From Candidatus Moanibacter sp. (GTDB lineage Bacteria > Verrucomicrobiota > Verrucomicrobiia > Opitutales > UBA2987): a DNA stretch of 25,714 nt. Shown piece by piece: positions 4,092 to 18,872 of this stretch; position 1 is the first letter of the stretch, and the number at the start of each line of letters is the position of its first letter. The position numbers were made by a program, and so were the translations under genes. The DNA is taken from NCBI GenBank assembly GCA_965215885.1, contig CBDCEW010000076.1, forward strand, positions 1 through 25,714. Direction: 5' to 3'. The notes beneath the pieces were generated by a model that was not told the DNA's origin, ran no database searches, and saw only the letters and a list, made by a program, of their open reading frames with translations.

Positions 4092-6008
4092 GACCCCATT
4101 CGAAAAGCCTTTCGAGCGGGCGGTTTAAGGTTCTCCGCCACGGGCGGACCAGCCTATGGCTGGCAGGTTTCGGGTTTTAGGCTGCCGGCGCTGCCGATGA
4201 GCAGGTATTGAGCGGCCATCGGCGTGGCTTGCTGCACAATACGTATATTTGCCGCTGTCTGGAGGCATACTCATCCCGTGGTGCTTTTTTCTCTGAGCTT
4301 CAAAGCGGTCAGATTCAGGCTGCCTGTTCCAGTTCCTCCCCTCGGCGTTTCTTCATCAGTATGATGCGGCAGAAGTTGTAGGCCAGAACCTTCTCGAGCA
4401 GTTCATCGCCTACCGCATCGATGCCGCGGCGGCCGAGTTCGCCAAAGGCAAATCCATCTTTAATCGTGAACATCAGCGACTCCACTGCGGAGCGATCGCG
4501 GCGTGCCTCGCGATACGCCTCGCTCTCCCAGTCCTCGGGGGTGGTCAACTTCTTGCCCTTCGCCCCACTGATACTGATCTGCTTTACCCCCATGCTCAGC
4601 ACCTCCTTGCGTCCCTTCGCCGAAGCATATCCGTCATCGGTGCTGACCAGTTCAGCAATGACACCGGTGCGCTTGATCGAATCGCCGATGGCCGGCGCCA
4701 GCTCAATGGAGTCTGCCGCGTTGCCTTGCGGTACGATCAGGCTGGTGACAAAACCGTTTTCGCTGCGAACCAGTTGTGGCTTGTACCCGATCACTGGATT
4801 GCGGCTGCCCTTCTTGATGTAGGCCGCCGATCCGTCCGAGAGGCTCAGGACCTTCTGTGTGGACGGTAGCTTCTTTTCGTGAAACACCCGATCATGAGCA
4901 TACTCAACAACCCGCTTGGCGTCGGCAATATCGCCCCTGATCTGGCTCAATGCCCGCTCCAGAAGCTCCCGGCGAGTGGGAGGCAGTGAATCCATCGACA
5001 GGCCCTCTTCAAGGTGGCTCAGTTCCCCCGTTAGTGAGTCGGCCGCCTTGCGGCCCCGCTTGAGCAACCGCCGGTAGTGTTTCTTCAGCTTGCCCTTCGA
5101 CTTCGGTTTGCCCGCGGCCAGACAAATCTGAAACTCCAGCTTGTCCATTTCCTCCAGCCAACGCCCAACCCATCCCTTGCGAAAATCCTCCAGCCCGAAG
5201 ACATGCAACTTCTGACCCAAACGATTGGCCCGCATCAAAAGACCGCTCAGAATCTTCCCATCGGTGGGCCAGCAGCTGTTTGCTTTCACCGAGGTGCTGT
5301 CGATCGTCAGCTTCCCGAAATCGTCCCATTGCTCCTGGAGGATAAACCCAATCTGTTTATCAAAGATCAACTCGCGGGTCGTATGGCTGACCAGGTTCAC
5401 GTTCTCCAGAATCGTCGTCACCGCCGGCATTCTCAGTCCCCCGCTCTGCAAAAATCCGTACAAGCTCATCGACTCGCGCACAAACCGCCGTGCCGGTTTC
5501 GTGGTCAACGAACCCAGAAACCCTCGAAGCATCACGAACACGTATACCGCATAAGCCGGCATCCGCGGCCGGCCTGCCCCAAGATTCAATTCAGCAGCCA
5601 GAATATTCTCCTCCTCGATGTCCAGCTCCGGCAGCTCCGCTGTGCGCCCTTCAAAGAACCTGCGATCTTCCAATCGAAGTTTCTTCTTCTCACGTGCATG
5701 GGCGTCCAGATCCTTCTCGATCGCCTCGATGATTTGCGCCGCGAACCCGGCCAATTCTTCAACTTCATCCAGAAAATCACGGAAATCCGTGTCTGGAACC
5801 GGCAGAATGAGGTTGCTAAGGGGCGTCTTATCGCTTTTGTTCTCCTCTGTCGCACATGTTGGCATGTTTAACTCCTTTCTTAATCTTAGGTTGTTAAATA
5901 CTAGCATGTTGCGACACTTTTTATCAAGCCAAAAAATGATTTTTCTCAAGTTTTTCTTGCGCCTTTTGCGCCTCTTTGCGGCCAATCAGTAGCTTTTCGG
6001 ATAAGGTC
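4092..6008 (-). mobile_element. Insertion sequence copy 2, complete, 1917 bp
   Basis: Imperfect TIRs GACCCCATTCGAAAAGC / GACCTTATCCGAAAAGC. Flanked by direct repeat TCACTA at 4086-4091 and 6009-6014 (or 4-bp CACT if the ends are one base longer). Confidence 0.95.
4315..5865 (-). CDS. DDE transposase (IS5/ISNCY-like), second copy
   Basis: Same protein as 45..1595 except K/E and G/S substitutions. Same RBS and start. Confidence 0.9.
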   Translation of the reverse strand: MPTCATEENKSDKTPLSNLILPVPDTDFRDFLDEVEELAGFAAQIIEAIEKDLDAHAREKKKLRLEDRRFFEGRTAELPELDIEEENILAAELNLGAGRPRMPAYAVYVFVMLRGFLGSLTTKPARRFVRESMSLYGFLQSGGLRMPAVTTILENVNLVSHTTRELIFDKQIGFILQEQWDDFGKLTIDSTSVKANSCWPTDGKILSGLLMRANRLGQKLHVFGLEDFRKGWVGRWLEEMDKLEFQICLAAGKPKSKGKLKKHYRRLLKRGRKAADSLTGELSHLEEGLSMDSLPPTRRELLERALSQIRGDIADAKRVVEYAHDRVFHEKKLPSTQKVLSLSDGSAAYIKKGSRNPVIGYKPQLVRSENGFVTSLIVPQGNAADSIELAPAIGDSIKRTGVIAELVSTDDGYASAKGRKEVLSMGVKQISISGAKGKKLTTPEDWESEAYREARRDRSAVESLMFTIKDGFAFGELGRRGIDAVGDELLEKVLAYNFCRIILMKKRRGEELEQAA

Positions 6009-6408: not shown

Positions 6409-8706
6409 TTACTCCCCGCCTCTGACCTCTTGCTCGGCCTCGCGCTCAAGGATGTCCTCCATCAACCTGTTTGCCTGCGCGTGTTTCGGTTCCCAGGCCA
6501 GCGTGTAGACAAGCTTGGCTTTGGCAGCTTCGTATTCCTGCAGGAAATAGTGGACGTATGCGAGCACGAAGTGGGCCTGATAGTCGCGCGGATGCTCCGT
6601 GACCCATTTCTTCAACCTCTCGAAGTGTACGCCAAACACATCGGGATCGTCGTATATTTCCCCCATGTTAAACTCGACCCTGCCCCAGTCCGGGATCAAC
6701 TCCATGCCGTGGACGAGGTCGTCATAAGCCGAGCGGTAGTCGCCCACGGCAATATAAACGTGGCCCCGGGCGAGATAGAGCAGCCCGTCCTCGGGCGCCT
6801 CGTCAATGGCCGCGTTAAACTCCACCAGCGCACGGTAATAACGCCCATTCTCGAATGCCGCGTAGGCCTTGCTGAGATGGTCATTCGCTTCGAATATATT
6901 GACCGGTTCGGCCTCATAGCGCGACTGCCGGTCGTAAACATAATGCGGCACGTGACGCGTCTCGTACCGGCCCAAATCGATAAAAAAGTAGAAGTTGCTC
7001 ATCCGATTGCGTATATAAGAGCGCCGCGGATAGATGTGCCACCTGTCGCGGTAGAAATAGTGCCCGCAGCCGTCACGGTGGGCGTGGTGAGAATGGCCGC
7101 TCACATACCACCTCACACCGTCGTAGAGGTGACCGCAGGTCGCCGAATGAACATGGGTTTCCGGGAAGTCATGCCACCCTCCGCGGAAGTGAAAATGCCC
7201 GCAACCATGGAAATGGACGTGCCCCCGGGAGTGGTTGTGCCAGAGGCCGTCATAGAAATAATGGCCGCAGCCGGGAGCGTGTCGGTGGTGATAACCCGCA
7301 TGGGAGAGCCAGACACCGCCATTACGGAAATGACCACAACCGGGCCCGTGGGCATGGCCGATGGCAAACGAAATCCAGCTTCCGTTGACAAAATGATGCC
7401 CGCAGCGAGGGCCGTGAACGTGGTGGCTCGGGTAATCATGCCAGCGACCGCCATGGTGGTAATGGCCGCATTGTGGCCCGTGGACATGGCCGAAATGCAG
7501 ATCGATGTTCACGTCCAATTTCTTCGTCTGTCGATGATGTCCGCCGCCCTGTCCAGCGTTATCCCTTCGCACGCTATTCCCTCTCGTCCCGGCTTCTTCG
7601 ATTAGTGACGCCGGTCGGAGACCTGTAACACCGCGGACACCCTTGCTCGCAACGATGGCGTCGATGGCCACACGCATCTGCTTCTCCCTCCGCACGCGTG
7701 TTTCACGATCGATCCCTTCCTGAAGCCCGCTGTAGCTGAATTGGGAATCCGACCGAGTCTGTTTATAGACCTTCGAGGGACGGGAAATCACATCAACGGG
7801 CGCTTTAAGGAGAGTCTCATTCGACCGGTCGGATGCAGCGGATCTCTGCCCAACCACCGAAACTGAGGATCCCGTGCCCGCTCGTTCATACCGCCGGATT
7901 TTGCCATACCACCGGTTGCGGGTGGCATTGTTGTCGCTCACCTCACCGCTTCGGCCGCGTCCCGTAGAAGGACCTTCGCGACTGATCCTGGGCTGCACGG
8001 AGCGCCGTTTGCCCGCTTCCCGATTCAATGGGCCACGAGCGCGACTGGCATCAGGCCGGCGGTGGGTGCGGGTCAAATCCTGTGTGGTTGTGGAACCGCT
8101 TTGGTGTTCATTTCGGTGAACTGAATGGGAGCGAGAACGCCCCGTGCGGCCGGTCGCCTCAGCGGCCGGGACCCCCCGCCCAATTGACGATTGGTTGGCT
8201 GAAGAGGATTCGGAGGAGGAGCGACGTTTCGCAAGTGATTGAGCCGGGGAGGAGCGGCCGTGGAGGGATCGCGCAGGGGACGATCTTTCCCTTGGGATAA
8301 CAGCGGCTCGATGCCTCATGGCTGAGCTGGAGGTTGGTTCCGTCCGAGACCTCGATCCGCCTGTCCTTCTTGAGGCTCTGCTAACGGAGGACTGTGATCT
8401 GCCTCGACCGGCCGATCTTTCCCTTGAAGAGTGATATTCCCGGCTCGGCGAGCGGTTCACCGTTTCGGAACGGCTCCGCGCCTTTTTCGTTTCCGGTTCC
8501 CTGCCATCATCCTCGCCTCTGAGATCGAACCCAGGACCCGCCAGTAACCACAAAACCGATACGGTGGTCCAAATCACGATCTTTCGATTCAGTTTCATCA
8601 CACGCTCATCTTTCCCCCTGGGAATCTGTTGGACCCTAAGGCCGACGGATTCCTGGCCCCTGCATTTCACAAGCCACCGGCTGCCACGGCGGATCTCATT
8701 GCCCAT
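6409..8706 (-). CDS. Probable exported protein: hydrophobic leader, Arg/Ser-rich low-complexity region, 7x HxHxxxCGH repeats, C-terminal TPRs
   Basis: MKLNRKIVIWTTVSVLWLLAG is signal-peptide-like (alternative start 8598; ATG 8706 has AGGAG upstream). TPR-like helices AYAAFENGRYYRALVEFNAAI, LARGHVYIAVGDYRSAY, FVLAYVHYFLQEYEAA. Confidence 0.85.
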   Translation of the reverse strand: MGNEIRRGSRWLVKCRGQESVGLRVQQIPRGKDERVMKLNRKIVIWTTVSVLWLLAGPGFDLRGEDDGREPETKKARSRSETVNRSPSREYHSSRERSAGRGRSQSSVSRASRRTGGSRSRTEPTSSSAMRHRAAVIPRERSSPARSLHGRSSPAQSLAKRRSSSESSSANQSSIGRGVPAAEATGRTGRSRSHSVHRNEHQSGSTTTQDLTRTHRRPDASRARGPLNREAGKRRSVQPRISREGPSTGRGRSGEVSDNNATRNRWYGKIRRYERAGTGSSVSVVGQRSAASDRSNETLLKAPVDVISRPSKVYKQTRSDSQFSYSGLQEGIDRETRVRREKQMRVAIDAIVASKGVRGVTGLRPASLIEEAGTRGNSVRRDNAGQGGGHHRQTKKLDVNIDLHFGHVHGPQCGHYHHGGRWHDYPSHHVHGPRCGHHFVNGSWISFAIGHAHGPGCGHFRNGGVWLSHAGYHHRHAPGCGHYFYDGLWHNHSRGHVHFHGCGHFHFRGGWHDFPETHVHSATCGHLYDGVRWYVSGHSHHAHRDGCGHYFYRDRWHIYPRRSYIRNRMSNFYFFIDLGRYETRHVPHYVYDRQSRYEAEPVNIFEANDHLSKAYAAFENGRYYRALVEFNAAIDEAPEDGLLYLARGHVYIAVGDYRSAYDDLVHGMELIPDWGRVEFNMGEIYDDPDVFGVHFERLKKWVTEHPRDYQAHFVLAYVHYFLQEYEAAKAKLVYTLAWEPKHAQANRLMEDILEREAEQEVRGGE
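7039..7488 (-). repeat. Seven tandem ~22-aa coding repeats, consensus HxHxxxCGH[FYHL]xxxxxW
   Basis: HVHGPQCGH, HVHGPRCGH, HAHGPGCGH, HRHAPGCGH, HVHFHGCGH, HVHSATCGH, HAHRDGCGH, each followed by W seven residues later. Confidence 0.95.
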
Positions 8707-9231: not shown

Positions 9232-11661
9232 TCAAGCTGCCTTCTCTATCGATTTTGAAAGCGAAAAGCCGGCTGCGAGGTAGATCGGAATGGCGGCCAG
9301 AAAAAGGGCATTGATCCCCCAGGTCAACGAGAAGGCAACGCTCAACAATGGTGCGAGAACCGAAAAGATCCCGTTGATACCCCATGCCCAGGGAGTGAAA
9401 TCGGCCGCGCTGCGTTTGAGCTGATCCAGCCCGGTGGGAAGAAAGACGCCGAGGACGAGCCCAAGTGGAGCAATGAGGAGCGTGACAAGCAGCACCTTGA
9501 GGAGCCAGGACCAGACGATCAGGTCGGAAAGCAGGGGAAAGACGAGGAAGCGTTCGAATGCGATTAGGGCGGCCAGCAAAAGGGCAGCGGAACGCACGCC
9601 GCCGAGGAAAGAGAGTATTGACTGCGAAAACAGCGAGCCGATTCCAGAGGAAAACAAAAGCACGGCGAGAACCACCGAAAGGGAAAAGTTGGGGTGCCCG
9701 AGAAAAAGCCCGAATTTCTGCAGAAGGGCAATTTCAACGGCGAGATATCCGAGCCCCAGACTGGAAAAGTAGTATATGTAGTAACGGTAGCCGGATATCC
9801 GCCTGTCCTTACGGGTAAGGAATCGAAGTGGAAGGAAAATACATAGCAGGACAGCCAGGACGATCGTCAGGAGAAGGATCAGAATGCTGTACTCCATGAA
9901 GGGAGCCGCCACCTTGACAGTGGGCCAGGCGTGCCACCAGTAGGAAAATCGGAAGAAAAAGGGGCGATCATCGCCGACCGGCGCGACATCGTAAGGATAA
10001 CGTTCCAACAGTCCCTCGCGAAACTTCTCATTCGGCATGCTCAAGTAAATCTGATAGAGATTGCTGTAAGCCTTGTTCAGGTCCGGCCCCGCGCTCAGCT
10101 CGAAGAAGGCCGAGCGCTCACACCAGTCGACAGCTTTCCGCATCTCTTCGTCGGTAAAGGGAGTTTACTTCAAAAGGAGTGCACTCAAGCCTCCGTCAAG
10201 CGCTGAAATCATGATAATGTGCCTTGCAGGATCTTCCATCCCCGCATTCTTGAGGGCTCTGAATCCCGTAATCAGCGCGCGAAACATGGGCCGGGGGGGA
10301 TCATGCTCAAGGCGCATCAGATTGAGGATCCCATCATCAGTCAGCCTGGATAAGAAGAGCTCAAAAGCTTCCAGGGTATAGAGATAATTCTCCGAGAAGA
10401 CGTGTGCGGATGCAACCGTCCCGCTGAATGTGTCGACGCCGGAAAGTTGAATAACGTCATAGCGCCGGTCGATTTGGGAGAGGTAATCCCGACCCTCGGA
10501 AAGCACCAGATTTACCCGCGGGTCACTTACCCAGTTCGCAAAATAGTCACCGTAGGTGTCCGTAAGGATTCTGTAGGTAGCTGCATTGATCTCCACCCCG
10601 GTAACTTCGCGGGCTCCATAGGCCAATGCGGTGAGCATATCGAAGCCTCCGCCCACCCCGATTGCTACGGCCCGGAGCTTCTGCACCGAAGAGATCTCGT
10701 AAGCCGCCGCGTAGAGAGTTTCCCCGATCCCTTGCAGGGACTCCGGTTTCCCAGCGTAGTCCAGGGCGTAGGTAAATGCAAAGTTATTCTGCGTCAGCAT
10801 GCGTTCAAACTGCTGCAGGAATTCCCGATCGCTACCGATGAGGGCGGGATAGCGGAAATTCTCCGGATCCGGAACCGGAATGCGCGAGACCTCGATCCTG
10901 GCGACGGGATCCCAGGCCACGTGCTCGACTCCAAACGGTGCATCCAGTTTCTCGATCTGAGCCAACATTGATCCCGAAGCATAACGCATTCGAAAGAGCC
11001 TCTCGGAGTAGAGAAATGCAAAAACGAGGGCCAGTAGAGTGAGCCCGGAGAGGAGGCGCACACTCCATTTTCGCGGCATGAAGAGGACCAGGTTCCCAAC
11101 AAGGAGCAGCGCGCAGGCAAAAAGGCAGCTGTTCTCAACCCCTATCCATGCCAGGCCCGGGATGACCGCAAACGCACCCAGGGCCGAGCCGAGCAAATCG
11201 TAGAAGTAGATTCTGCGGGTGGGAAACTCGGGAGCTGTGAGGAGAATACCGAGGATCAGTCCCGAAAAAGTGAATGGTAGGGCAAAGACAAGGGCAAAGG
11301 GAATGGTTCTCAGGAAGACCAGAAGGTAGCCCGACCTCGAGACATGATAATTCGCTTCGACATCCGCATGATAAAGCAGCGCCGCTCCGCCCAGAAGAGT
11401 GCCCACGAAAAGACCGGAAAAAACAGCTATGGATTCACGTATGTTGCGTATATAGCTCTCCAGGTATCGAGTCAGGATAACCCCGGAAAAAGCAAATCCA
11501 AGCATCGTAAGGGAAATCACCACAAAGGCGTAGTTATTGAGGAACTTCGCCGACACCATGCGGTGCACGAGAATCTGCGCGGTGAGCGTGACGGCGGCCG
11601 TGAGAAAAGCGGATCCCGCCGTTGCTCTTGCGATGCCTTTTTCTTTGCGGGTCAACGTCAC
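9232..11661 (-). pseudogene. Membrane-bound spermidine-synthase-like SAM-dependent transferase, split by one in-frame TAA
   Basis: TM block, then IGVGGG / VEIN / YDVIQLSGVDT class I SAM fold, then DDRPFFF and a second TM block. The two ORFs are in the same frame: TTG AAG TAA ACT CCC TTT ACC GAC GAA GAG ATG, stop at 10165-10167. Confidence 0.88.
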
Positions 11662-16014: not shown

Positions 16015-16248
16015 ATTTGTTTGTAGTTATTTCTTCCTGTAGTCTCTTGCGAATTTGAAGTCGCTGCGCGATTGGGTAACGATGCTGATAATCGGCGAAG
16101 AAGGCTATAGAACTCCTCCTGAATCTCCCTCACCGTCAAGATTGACAGCTGATTCTAATCCACGCGAGGTCAAAACTCAACCCATGCCACTCTGACCCGA
16201 ATGGCGATAAGATAAGCCAAAAATAATTGTAAAAAATATGTAAAAAGC

Positions 16249-16277
16249 TTGTACTATGACCGTTAGTAGGCTAATCT
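16249..16277 (+). promoter_or_regulatory. Putative sigma70 promoter for the IS4 transposase, probably leaderless
   Basis: TTGTAC-N17-TAATCT ends 6 nt before ATG 16284. No Shine-Dalgarno sequence seen. Confidence 0.5.
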
Positions 16278-16283
16278 TGTTGT

Positions 16284-17747
16284 ATGAAAAATATGACAAG
16301 ATTCCTGCCTGGGTTTAATCACATTCTATGCGGTCGCCCGCCTAAGTCGGCCCTGGCACAATTAAAGCAAAAACTGGCTCATCTAAGAGAGTCAACTCTA
16401 TCGGAGTTGTCGGATCTGTTTGATCGGTGGATTCCTCTGGGAGTTTTGCAACCCAAGAGCGAAAAAGAAAACAGCCGGGAACGAGTCTACTCACTCAGAA
16501 CGACCTTCTGGGGCTTTCTGTTCCAGGTGCTCTCCCCGCAGACAGCCTGCCGGGAGGTCGTCAGAAAGGTGCAGAGCTACTGTAGTGAGCGGGAGTTGAA
16601 CCTGCCCAGTTCCTCCACCTCGGCCTATTGCCAGGCACGTCAGCGCATAGGTATAGAGGACTTACAAAAGATCGGTGAAGAGGTCAGCGAGCAGATACAC
16701 AAGGAGGTAAGGCAAGCGCAGCGGTGGAAGGGGCACGAGGTCAGAGTGATAGACGGTACTGGGATCAGTATGCCCGATACCGAGCAGAACCAGAGGGCCT
16801 TTCCCCAACCCGGGGGGCAGAAAGAGGGGTGCGGATTTCCCGTCATGCTTCTGGTGGGCTGTTTCTGTTTGGCCAGCGGGGCCTTGCTGCACTGTGTCGA
16901 GACCACCTTAAAAAACCATGAAAGCGGCATTTTGCGCAAATTCGTTGGGTATTTGAAAAAAGCAGAGGTGGTTCTGTGCGACCGCGGTTATTGCTCTTAT
17001 GCCAATCTGGGGCTGCTTCTAAACCATCAAATGGACGCGGTCATGCGCCTGCACCAAAGGCGCAAATGCGACTTCCGTAGCGGCCAAACACTGGGCCGAT
17101 ACGATCGGCTGGTGACCTGGAAAAAACCGCAGAGACAGCACGCGTTCAGCCCGGAAGAATGGGCTCAATTACCGGCCGAACTGACTCTGCGAATGGTGCG
17201 TTTCTTCGTTCAGCTCAAAGGCTTCCGTACCCGAAAGATCGATCTTGTGACCACCTTTACCGACCCCCTCCAATACACCGTAGAGGATCTGGCCGATCTC
17301 TACTTCCGCCGCTGGTCAGTGGAACTGTTTTTTCGCGACATTAAAACGACTATGAAGATGGAAACGGTACGCTGCCTTACTCCCGAAATGGTGCGTAAGG
17401 AAATCCAGCTGTTCTTTATCGCCTATAATCTCATCCGCGCCCTCATGCAACACCCCGCCACCCTCTATCAGCGTGACCTGCATCGGCTCAGCTTCAAGAG
17501 CACGGTCGACACCGTTCGGCAGTACTGCACCGCTCTGAACGCCACCCGCAAGCAACCTCGAAAGCAACAACGCATCATTGACGAGATGGTTCTGATTATT
17601 GCCGAGGAGACTGTTCCACTACGAGAACACCGCAGCGAACCACGAGCGGTCAAACGAAGACCGAAACCTTACCAATTACTAACGAAGCCGCGAGGGAAAA
17701 TGAAAGTCTCGCGCTCGCGCAGAAACAAAGGCAAAAATCGTCGTTAA
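16284..17747 (+). CDS. IS4 family transposase
   Basis: SAYCQARQR, VIDGT, LCDRGY and the YREK signature YFRRWSVELFFRDIK, plus C-terminal EPRAVKRRPK. Confidence 0.97.
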   Translation: MKNMTRFLPGFNHILCGRPPKSALAQLKQKLAHLRESTLSELSDLFDRWIPLGVLQPKSEKENSRERVYSLRTTFWGFLFQVLSPQTACREVVRKVQSYCSERELNLPSSSTSAYCQARQRIGIEDLQKIGEEVSEQIHKEVRQAQRWKGHEVRVIDGTGISMPDTEQNQRAFPQPGGQKEGCGFPVMLLVGCFCLASGALLHCVETTLKNHESGILRKFVGYLKKAEVVLCDRGYCSYANLGLLLNHQMDAVMRLHQRRKCDFRSGQTLGRYDRLVTWKKPQRQHAFSPEEWAQLPAELTLRMVRFFVQLKGFRTRKIDLVTTFTDPLQYTVEDLADLYFRRWSVELFFRDIKTTMKMETVRCLTPEMVRKEIQLFFIAYNLIRALMQHPATLYQRDLHRLSFKSTVDTVRQYCTALNATRKQPRKQQRIIDEMVLIIAEETVPLREHRSEPRAVKRRPKPYQLLTKPRGKMKVSRSRRNKGKNRR

Positions 17748-17864
17748 TCGGGCTTATCTTAGCGCCATTCCACTCTGACCCTCTATTCTCTCCGCCCTCC
17801 TCGCTTCGTCTGAAATCGCGAGTCGCCGAACAGGCGAGTTGAGTTTATGCCATTGTCGAGGAAC

Positions 17865-18020: not shown

Positions 18021-18448
18021 CCGGCGGAGGGTGTAGGGAGTTTTACTCTTCACGAGGAGTTGGGAATAGGAGATAAAATTGCAGAGGGAGCGATTCCAGT
18101 TGTGCTGCAAGCGTTACTTATTTTAAGCGACCACGAACCGCAGTGTGGGATTAACTGTACGGGGGAACGGTACTGAGCGGCGGTCAGAGGGTGTCAGATT
18201 GGAAATTCTTAGATTTTCCTCAGGGAATTATAGGATTTACTGTTTTATCCTCTGCCCGCGTTGATCTGCACTAATTCAGTGAAAAGGCAATGGTTACTTT
18301 CCATTCCCCTGAATTTCTGTCTCTTTCAATATCCCTCTTGATCTTTTCCCAGGCAAATTCCCGAACAGATCCCCCAATCCAGCTCCTTGAGCTCTCGTGG
18401 TGCTATAGCCTCATTGGATTCTCAATCCCTCATTTCGCAGTCGGACCC

Positions 18449-18587
18449 GAATGGCGCTAAGATAAGGGGCAATAACGGTAAATCCTGCCGCGGTCCGTTT
18501 CGGCCGCAAGCGGCCTTCCTACAGCAATTTGTGCAACTCGTAGGAAGCTCGCTCGCGAGCGATACGCCCCTTATCTTAGCGCCATTC
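18449..18587. mobile_element. 139-bp MITE with IS4-type ends
   Basis: Perfect 22-bp TIR GAATGGCGCTAAGATAAGGGGC, whose first 18 nt match the right end of the neighbouring IS4 element. 11-bp flanks CAGTCGGACCC / CAGTCTGACCC (10/11). Confidence 0.93.
18500..18562. repeat. Divergent pair of GTAG-type REP palindromes inside the MITE
   Basis: Minus strand 18500-18522 GTAGGAAGGCCGCTTGCGGCCGA; plus strand 18540-18562 GTAGGAAGCTCGCTCGCGAGCGA. Confidence 0.8.
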
Positions 18588-18872
18588 CAGTCTGACCCCA
18601 TGCCTCCCCGCCATGCCTCCCCGAGATCAGGTGGGTGTCCTGAATCGTGTTTTCCGCCCCAGGCTTCGTGAAACAACGGCCAGATCCTCAACGAATAGCG
18701 ATTACCTCCTATTCAACCTCAGAGGCCCGAAAAGACAATTGCCAAAGGGTCTTGAAAGGACAAAACTGCTCGCGAAAGTTTCATAGGTCGAAAATTCAGA
18801 CGATGCGTATTTGCCATATGGGAAACTCCAATTATTGGTCATTTCGTGTCGGTTCCTAGTCTAGTGTGCTGT

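Follow-up and report, generated by a model that had tools for sequence, protein, structure and literature searches.

REP hairpin repeats are usually spread by an enzyme other than that of the transposon. Within the 25,714-nucleotide stretch of DNA analysed here (the window), a 139-bp element holds two such repeats between ends that match a nearby IS4-family element, raising the question of which enzyme moved the pair, whether the composite itself is the unit of spread, and what keeps the repeats intact once they are in place.

The 139-bp element and the neighbouring IS4-family element

The element lies at positions 18449-18587, where the initial annotation had described 139 bp with perfect 22-bp TIRs, and it has the features of a MITE: it is short, non-coding and bounded by terminal inverted repeats. 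From left to right it consists of the left TIR (18449..18470, + strand), the outer 18 nt of which are those of the IS4 right end; a left arm (18471..18499, + strand) that is constant in length, variable in sequence and similar over its first ~7 nt to the subterminal sequence of the IS right end; a GTAG REP unit of type A (unit A; 18500..18522, - strand); an unstranded 17-bp linker (18523..18539); a GTAG REP unit of type B (unit B; 18540..18562, + strand); and the right TIR (18566..18587, - strand). An 11-bp TSD had been claimed for the flanks (18438..18448 and 18588..18598, both unstranded), and a direct repeat is indeed present there, but it is imperfect, the left copy having one mismatch to the right copy (10/11).

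Units A and B are divergent, with their GTAG tags on the inside around the linker, and differ at five positions, four of which form reciprocal changes in stem pairs 9-20 and 10-19 while the fifth is in the loop. The stem changes are therefore compensatory, as first described; they did not arise in the window copy, however, and instead represent a fixed, genome-wide difference between type A and type B. The element strand folds with z = -7.8 (0 of 200 shuffles were equally good), and this value, together with the multi-copy family to which the element belongs, indicates that it is not a product of chance. Rfam contained no family that reached its gathering score with the MITE, just two sub-threshold chance matches being returned.

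At 16199..17770 (+ strand), 678 bp away, is an autonomous IS4-family element of 1572 bp that is the candidate helper and is flanked by a perfect 11-bp TSD (16188-16198 / 17771-17781). Its right end is identical to the outer 18 nt of the MITE, bearing out the match to an IS4 element ~680 bp distant, and its left end has one mismatch to the MITE's first 18 nt. The 487-aa DDE transposase (16284..17747, + strand) contains PF01609, scores 205 bits against NF033592 (cut-off 115) and has a YREK motif at residues 340-354 (Y340-R343-E347-K354). Subgroup IS4, as defined by De Palmenaer et al. (2008; PMC2266710, Table 1), is characterised by -AATR ends, direct repeats of 10-13 bp, a length of 1400-1650 bp and YREK, each of which the helper IS has, and the MITE shares the ends and TSDs of the subgroup; the main text of that paper does not use the term MITE, and its passages on the subgroup describe no REP cargo, which the window element carries. 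The source genome contains 12 uninterrupted copies of this IS with ~99% identity, 7 interrupted or partial copies and one 90% relative, and perfect TSDs border 10 of the 14 paired copies. The proposal that the MITE interior is not a deletion derivative of the IS holds for the core but not for the ends, which are IS-derived, the left one resembling the IS right end to about nucleotide 29.

Other features of the window and of the IS copies were also recorded. Near-identical copies of another DDE transposase gene (45-1715 and 4315-5985) flank a membrane-protein gene and split a response-regulator-like frame, and a 765-aa ORF (6409-8706) has a long low-complexity N-terminal part with tandem His/Cys/Gly-rich repeats followed by a helical C-terminal part. 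The source genome is very IS-rich, with some 16-mers present in more than 120 copies. Three IS4 copies are interrupted by an element of ~110-135 bp (C94:69400-69270, C96:48071 and C41:36690-36800), the ends of which resemble those flanking the genome's IS200-type tnpA copies.

Copies, target sites and REP cargo in the source genome

An HMM built from 13 copies produced 48 non-overlapping nhmmer matches above 40 bits, of which 46 reach an element end and 31 have both ends, corresponding to a family of ~45 copies. The window element is thus not single-copy, the 31 both-ended copies occupying distinct loci with distinct TSDs. Subfamily I (139 bp) has IS-like ends, subfamily II (138 bp) has ends that differ at 3 of 18 positions, and two copies are apparent chimeras. 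Flanking direct-repeat identity peaks at 11 bp (0.69, versus 0.16-0.29 at 8-10 and 12-14 bp). TSDs matching at 9 or more of 11 positions were found for 16 of the 31 both-ended copies, compared with 4.6% of cross-paired flanks, and 0 of 20,000 permutations gave as high a value; the match is 11/11 in 7 copies and 8/11 or lower in 15. Using a target matrix from 10 IS TSDs, 24 of 31 MITE right flanks scored above the 99th percentile of random 11-mers, and one MITE abuts an IS copy over a single common 11-mer (C97:103496-103506). The 11-bp TSDs and common target are marks of an IS4-type DDE reaction, and an enzyme of this kind would have inserted the MITE copies. Helical phasing of element length was also considered and is not supported, as copies of 114-142 bp have perfect TSDs.

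Subfamily I ends match the IS right end at 18 of 18 positions, and the transposase encoded at 16284-17747 may well mobilise the MITE. Six of the seven copies with perfect TSDs have subfamily II TIRs, which are 3/18 positions removed from the window IS, and ends of this type predominate among the youngest copies. The source assembly, which is 90% complete, yielded no autonomous element of subfamily II; a candidate end of such an element on contig C77 was rejected, as the sequence there is a MITE into which another IS, of 2.4 kb, has inserted. Because median pairwise identity among the MITEs is 70% (99.3% for the closest pair) and the IS copies are ~99% identical, the present IS burst is not the source of most MITE copies.

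The internal units also occur well beyond the window. With up to 4 mismatches allowed, there are 137 A/B units in the genome, arranged in 79 clusters: 49 dimers (34 tail-to-tail and 15 head-to-head), 3 arrays and 27 singles. Tail-to-tail doublets are mostly inside IS4 ends, with traces of the TIRs lying at constant offsets (51 and 25 bp), and the 17-bp linker is present in 26 of the 34. TIR traces are missing from two doublets whose linker, at 47-48 bp, is of the free-array type. That long linker also occurs in one copy with TIRs (C75:57386), a hint of exchange with free arrays. The 15 head-to-head doublets are free, none having a TIR match better than 7 mismatches in 18 within 90 bp, and their spacers of 22 bp are unlike the MITE cargo. 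When elements were sought by TIR similarity alone, independently of REPs, 23 short elements were recovered, of which 21 contain A/B units (one having lost most of A), one contains another REP pair and one is a deletion remnant. The REP pair is therefore kept by other MITE copies, and none of the 23 TIR-only pairs is an empty MITE. Together, the TIR offsets of the tail-to-tail doublets, the TIR-less head-to-head doublets and the lack of empty pairs indicate that it is the composite that spreads; about two-thirds of the source genome's doublets of the A/B REP family are attributable to it.

The units are GTAG REPs by their structure and distribution, with a GTAG tag followed by a short stem-loop with a covarying stem, and with dispersed, multi-copy, mainly intergenic and often dimeric occurrence. 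Both variable pairs are Watson-Crick in 77 of 86 units with intact tag and core, in four pair combinations, a count that includes related and hence non-independent copies. According to a rough ORF call in which ORFs make up 79% of the genome, 3 of the 31 MITE copies lie inside ORFs, as do 3 of the 17 free clusters.

A joint removing the window copy was sought in the contigs of 4 of the 23 listed runs and was not found there. Two low-depth read joints skip part of the interior and one goes back 163 bp; their sides are short, other copies may be their source, and they were set aside. A search of 40 relatives (8 of the same family, none of the same genus) did not recover the element, and the REP pattern had one match only among 400 genomes of the order, leaving no orthologous empty sites for comparison.

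Two further sets of observations concern the REP loops and the target sequence. About two dozen REP loops contain 26-40-bp insertions at the same loop point (e.g., C79:65127, C101:92122, C11:800 and C91:82421); they affect A as well as B units, both subfamilies and the free doublets, similar ones are present in genome G401 (L165, L167), and one type has a constant 8-nt head and a variable hairpin. These insertions look like a third, site-specific small mobile element. The IS/MITE target consensus resembles the GGGGWSAS motif given in the text of PMC3733652 for TIRs that flank Y1 "TIRYT" genes, and window positions 18184-18222 are a decayed example of such a target site. An IS4 end is beside 6 of 8 copies of one TIRYT-type end repeat, and a MITE on contig C30 is at the stop codon of a TIRYT-like gene.

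The REP family and the IS4-type ends elsewhere

The A/B REP pattern is present at at least 95 loci in the genome collection, and nearly all of the 80 matches listed are from Verrucomicrobiota. Among the outside matches listed, 58 have a head-to-head partner and 9 a tail-to-tail partner, and none has an IS4 end when up to 4 mismatches are allowed; no RAYT was found within 1.2 kb at 95 outside REP loci, from at least 95 matches. A search for a RAYT flanked by the same REP had been suggested as a check, and the family does flank RAYT genes on both sides in two other genomes (L385 and L389, among 28 RAYT-model loci from 5 genomes), where the REPs have the same 8-nt head and core with sister stem types, the exact A and B stems not being seen at those loci. 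In the source assembly, by contrast, none of the 22 Y1/RAYT loci is A/B-flanked, an absence that the 90% completeness of the assembly leaves short of proof, and the closest RAYT homolog (36-40% identity) is a broken gene on contig C16 with other REPs. We infer that the cognate RAYT has been lost from the source genome. With no cognate RAYT in the assembly, and with a mobile unit that includes TIRs and makes 11-bp TSDs, the MITE-borne pair differs from a REPIN/RAYT system, and the DDE route would account for most of the A/B doublets in this genome.

RAYT-like genes, each with its own repeat family, are present in the source genome at C105:427587-428159, C93:78750-79253, C96:31861-32229 and C16:7962-8464; the array linkers of the broken C16 gene resemble those of the free A/B arrays.

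The IS4-type ends are also found around other cargo. A second MITE family in the source genome has IS4-like ends and a head-to-head GTAG REP pair, C/D (C47:5947-6072, C34:8995, C68:~37950 and C98:25754), and there are two A/B-C/D hybrids (C32:~10350-10530 and C96:123423). A free C/D dimer was seen on contig C52. The 16-nt TIR core was detected in 55 of 401 phylum genomes, a reversed control giving at most 2 matches per genome. A survey of 185 outside loci (131 metagenome matches to the end of subfamily II, 30 loci from the phylum, 7 from G401 and 17 regions selected for having a close TIR pair) yielded 68 distinct short elements, and TSDs of at least 10/11 were present in 34 of the 66 that could be scored. 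Ten of the 68 contain an inverted tagged hairpin pair, compared with 0.8 expected from shuffles, although several belong to one 115-bp family; 35 fold at z <= -2, and others carry hexamer arrays or no evident structure. Six distinct autonomous IS4 elements, with 31-42% identity to the window transposase, have ends of the subfamily II type, and these are confined to metagenome loci. The window MITE is one case of IS4-ended MITEs with varied cargo, among which REP pairs are a minority. At L205, L206, L210 and L358, the same ends surround two tandem hexamer arrays that vary in length and are inverted relative to each other.

The REP family is also present within a different repeat in G401, where an unrelated TIR element of ~125 bp carries a head-to-head dimer (38 end matches versus 1 in the control; L083, L111, L131, L133, L134 and L155-L184). 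No transposase for this element was found among 7 DDE loci.

Maintenance of the REP units and models of spread

Divergence from the subfamily consensus in 29 of the 31 copies (the two chimeras were omitted) is 2.3% for the REPs (30/1314) and 13.8% for the TIRs (144/1044), while spacers diverge by 26% in subfamily I and 11% in subfamily II. HMM columns for the REPs weigh most and could inflate their conservation, but the 21 TIR-ascertained copies show the same pattern. As a proxy for change after insertion, we counted private letters, those in one copy alone: 15/1314 in the REPs (1.1%), 49/1044 in the TIRs (4.7%) and 78/1618 in the spacers (4.8%), the sites and copies in these counts being non-independent, so that Fisher P values overstate the difference. 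TIRs thus drift like neutral DNA after insertion and REPs do not, indicating that the REPs are maintained in place, about four times better than TIRs and spacers. In 13 copies with poor TSDs, REP distance is 0.04-0.05 and TIR distance 0.39. Selection for transposition alone cannot explain this conservation, whereas it can be accounted for by host selection or by homogenisation of REP copies with one another, and one of these would be its cause.

These data make it probable that the element is a non-autonomous MITE of the IS4 subgroup with a captured tail-to-tail REP heterodimer, spread by an IS4 transposase, whose REPs were later kept; the hybrid proposed at the outset, a REP doublet within an IS4-ended MITE, is supported by these sequence signatures. 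A RAYT-served REP pair would have become enclosed by IS4 ends on one occasion, having inserted into an IS or MITE the remaining interior of which was subsequently lost. That both subfamilies have the same fixed TIR-to-REP offsets (51 and 25 bp) suggests a single capture, and the insertion-then-deletion route is visible in the IS copies on contigs C94 and C96, which hold a small foreign element, ~540 bp beside it having been lost from the C96 copy. An IS4 transposase acting in trans would then have copied the composite to dozens of sites, giving 11-bp TSDs at the IS target consensus. Thereafter TIRs and spacers drift equally, and the REPs would be kept by host selection or homogenisation. For transposition the REPs are most likely passengers.

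Conservation of the REPs could instead mean that bending of the element by the hairpins, or by a host protein that binds them, allows the IS4 ends to pair, such that REP-keeping lineages transpose better. The REPs are the best-kept part (2.3% versus 13.8% for TIRs), spacer lengths are nearly fixed, the source genome has no empty version and has a second REP pair in the same ends, and the folding of 35 of the 68 outside elements is in keeping with such a role. However, REPs are intact where TIRs and TSDs have decayed (0.04-0.05 versus 0.39) and private substitutions are also suppressed, neither of which is predicted by selection for transposition alone; one copy, C97:302, has a perfect TSD despite losing most of unit A; and 58 of the 68 outside elements lack a tagged inverted pair. 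We consider a structural role of this kind unlikely.

HUH transposition is not known to make TSDs. The 11-bp TSDs with the IS target consensus at many distinct loci, and the lack of an A/B-flanked RAYT among the 22 Y1/RAYT loci, therefore argue against an extended REPIN moved by an HUH enzyme with IS4-like ends as incidental remnants, and we regard this explanation as quite improbable, even though conserved REPs with variable, fixed-length spacers are the REPIN pattern (as outlined in PMC3116915) and a clean loss of one end is seen in some copies (C16, C100). Repeated, independent landing of REP doublets in existing MITEs via RAYT, in which case the composite would not be the unit of spread, has precedent in REP dimers within other palindromes (among those described in PMC3733652), in the same REP family within other repeats in other genomes, and in the free doublets and arrays of the source genome. 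It is nonetheless already largely refuted, and very improbable, given the 0/23 empty TIR pairs, the identical offsets in both subfamilies, the nearly identical composites (95-98%) that occupy separate sites, each with its own perfect TSD (C26, C41, C96), and the free doublets, which are head-to-head with 22-bp spacers and so unlike the cargo.

We offer tentatively, and consider rather doubtful, a broader proposal: that in many bacteria the ends of this IS4 clade are a general carrier for small palindromic repeats belonging to other systems, and that a RAYT-less REP family can survive and spread by switching to a DDE enzyme while its hairpins are kept by the host or by gene conversion. If true, this would explain how REP families can be retained in genomes that lack a RAYT and would make REP function testable apart from RAYT. 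REP persistence and host benefit are an open question that is difficult to disentangle from replication by RAYTs. In the source genome, dozens of REP pairs have been placed by what would be a different enzyme, with TSDs, TIRs and spacers as built-in neutral references, allowing a within-genome measure of REP maintenance. Conservation of the REPs in place while the transposon parts decay is the unexpected part of our results and is worth following.

A REP-carrying MITE has already been published, and the composite is not a new kind of element. QMITE2 of Coxiella burnetii (Wachter et al. 2018, PMC5896051) resembles the window MITE in having TIRs, direct repeats and an internal GTAG REP; it is 150-190 bp long with unique 7-11-nt direct repeats, and free REP-only versions are present in the same genome. 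The available text of that report names no mobilising transposase and takes the free REPs as truncated MITEs, whereas the window MITE has an identified autonomous IS4 partner with a common target consensus, its REP family is linked to RAYT genes, and its cargo is a heterodimer arranged tail to tail. The REPs surveyed by Di Nocera et al. (2013, PMC3733652) resemble A/B in their GTAG tag and 6-bp stem and in forming HH and TT dimers and heterodimers. The GTAG-15 dimers of A. variabilis and the CGTC-1 dimers of H. neapolitanus lie regularly within long palindromes, with no empty copies found, and the portions of that paper describing them assign neither transposase nor TSD, in contrast to the IS4-type ends and TSDs of the window family. 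The O. terrae families GTAG-17, 19 and 20, the consensus of which is given in a figure of the same paper, may include A/B. An IS4-ended MITE with a REP doublet was not found in full-text literature, a corpus mostly without subscription journals and supplements, in which figures may list the REP family.

The free head-to-head doublets of the source genome fit the REPINs of Bertels and Rainey (2011, PMC3116915), which in the sections defining them are inverted REP pairs with conserved REPs and a variable, fixed-length spacer. The window cargo differs from these in its tail-to-tail arrangement and in having DDE ends and TSDs on either side. The accessible part of a preprint (bioRxiv 10.1101/2021.07.10.451892) presents MITEs, which are fast and short-lived, and REPINs, which are slow and long-lived, as distinct classes. 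The window element combines features of both, suggesting that MITEs and REP doublets, which are usually kept apart as classes, are able to merge and to switch mobilising enzyme.
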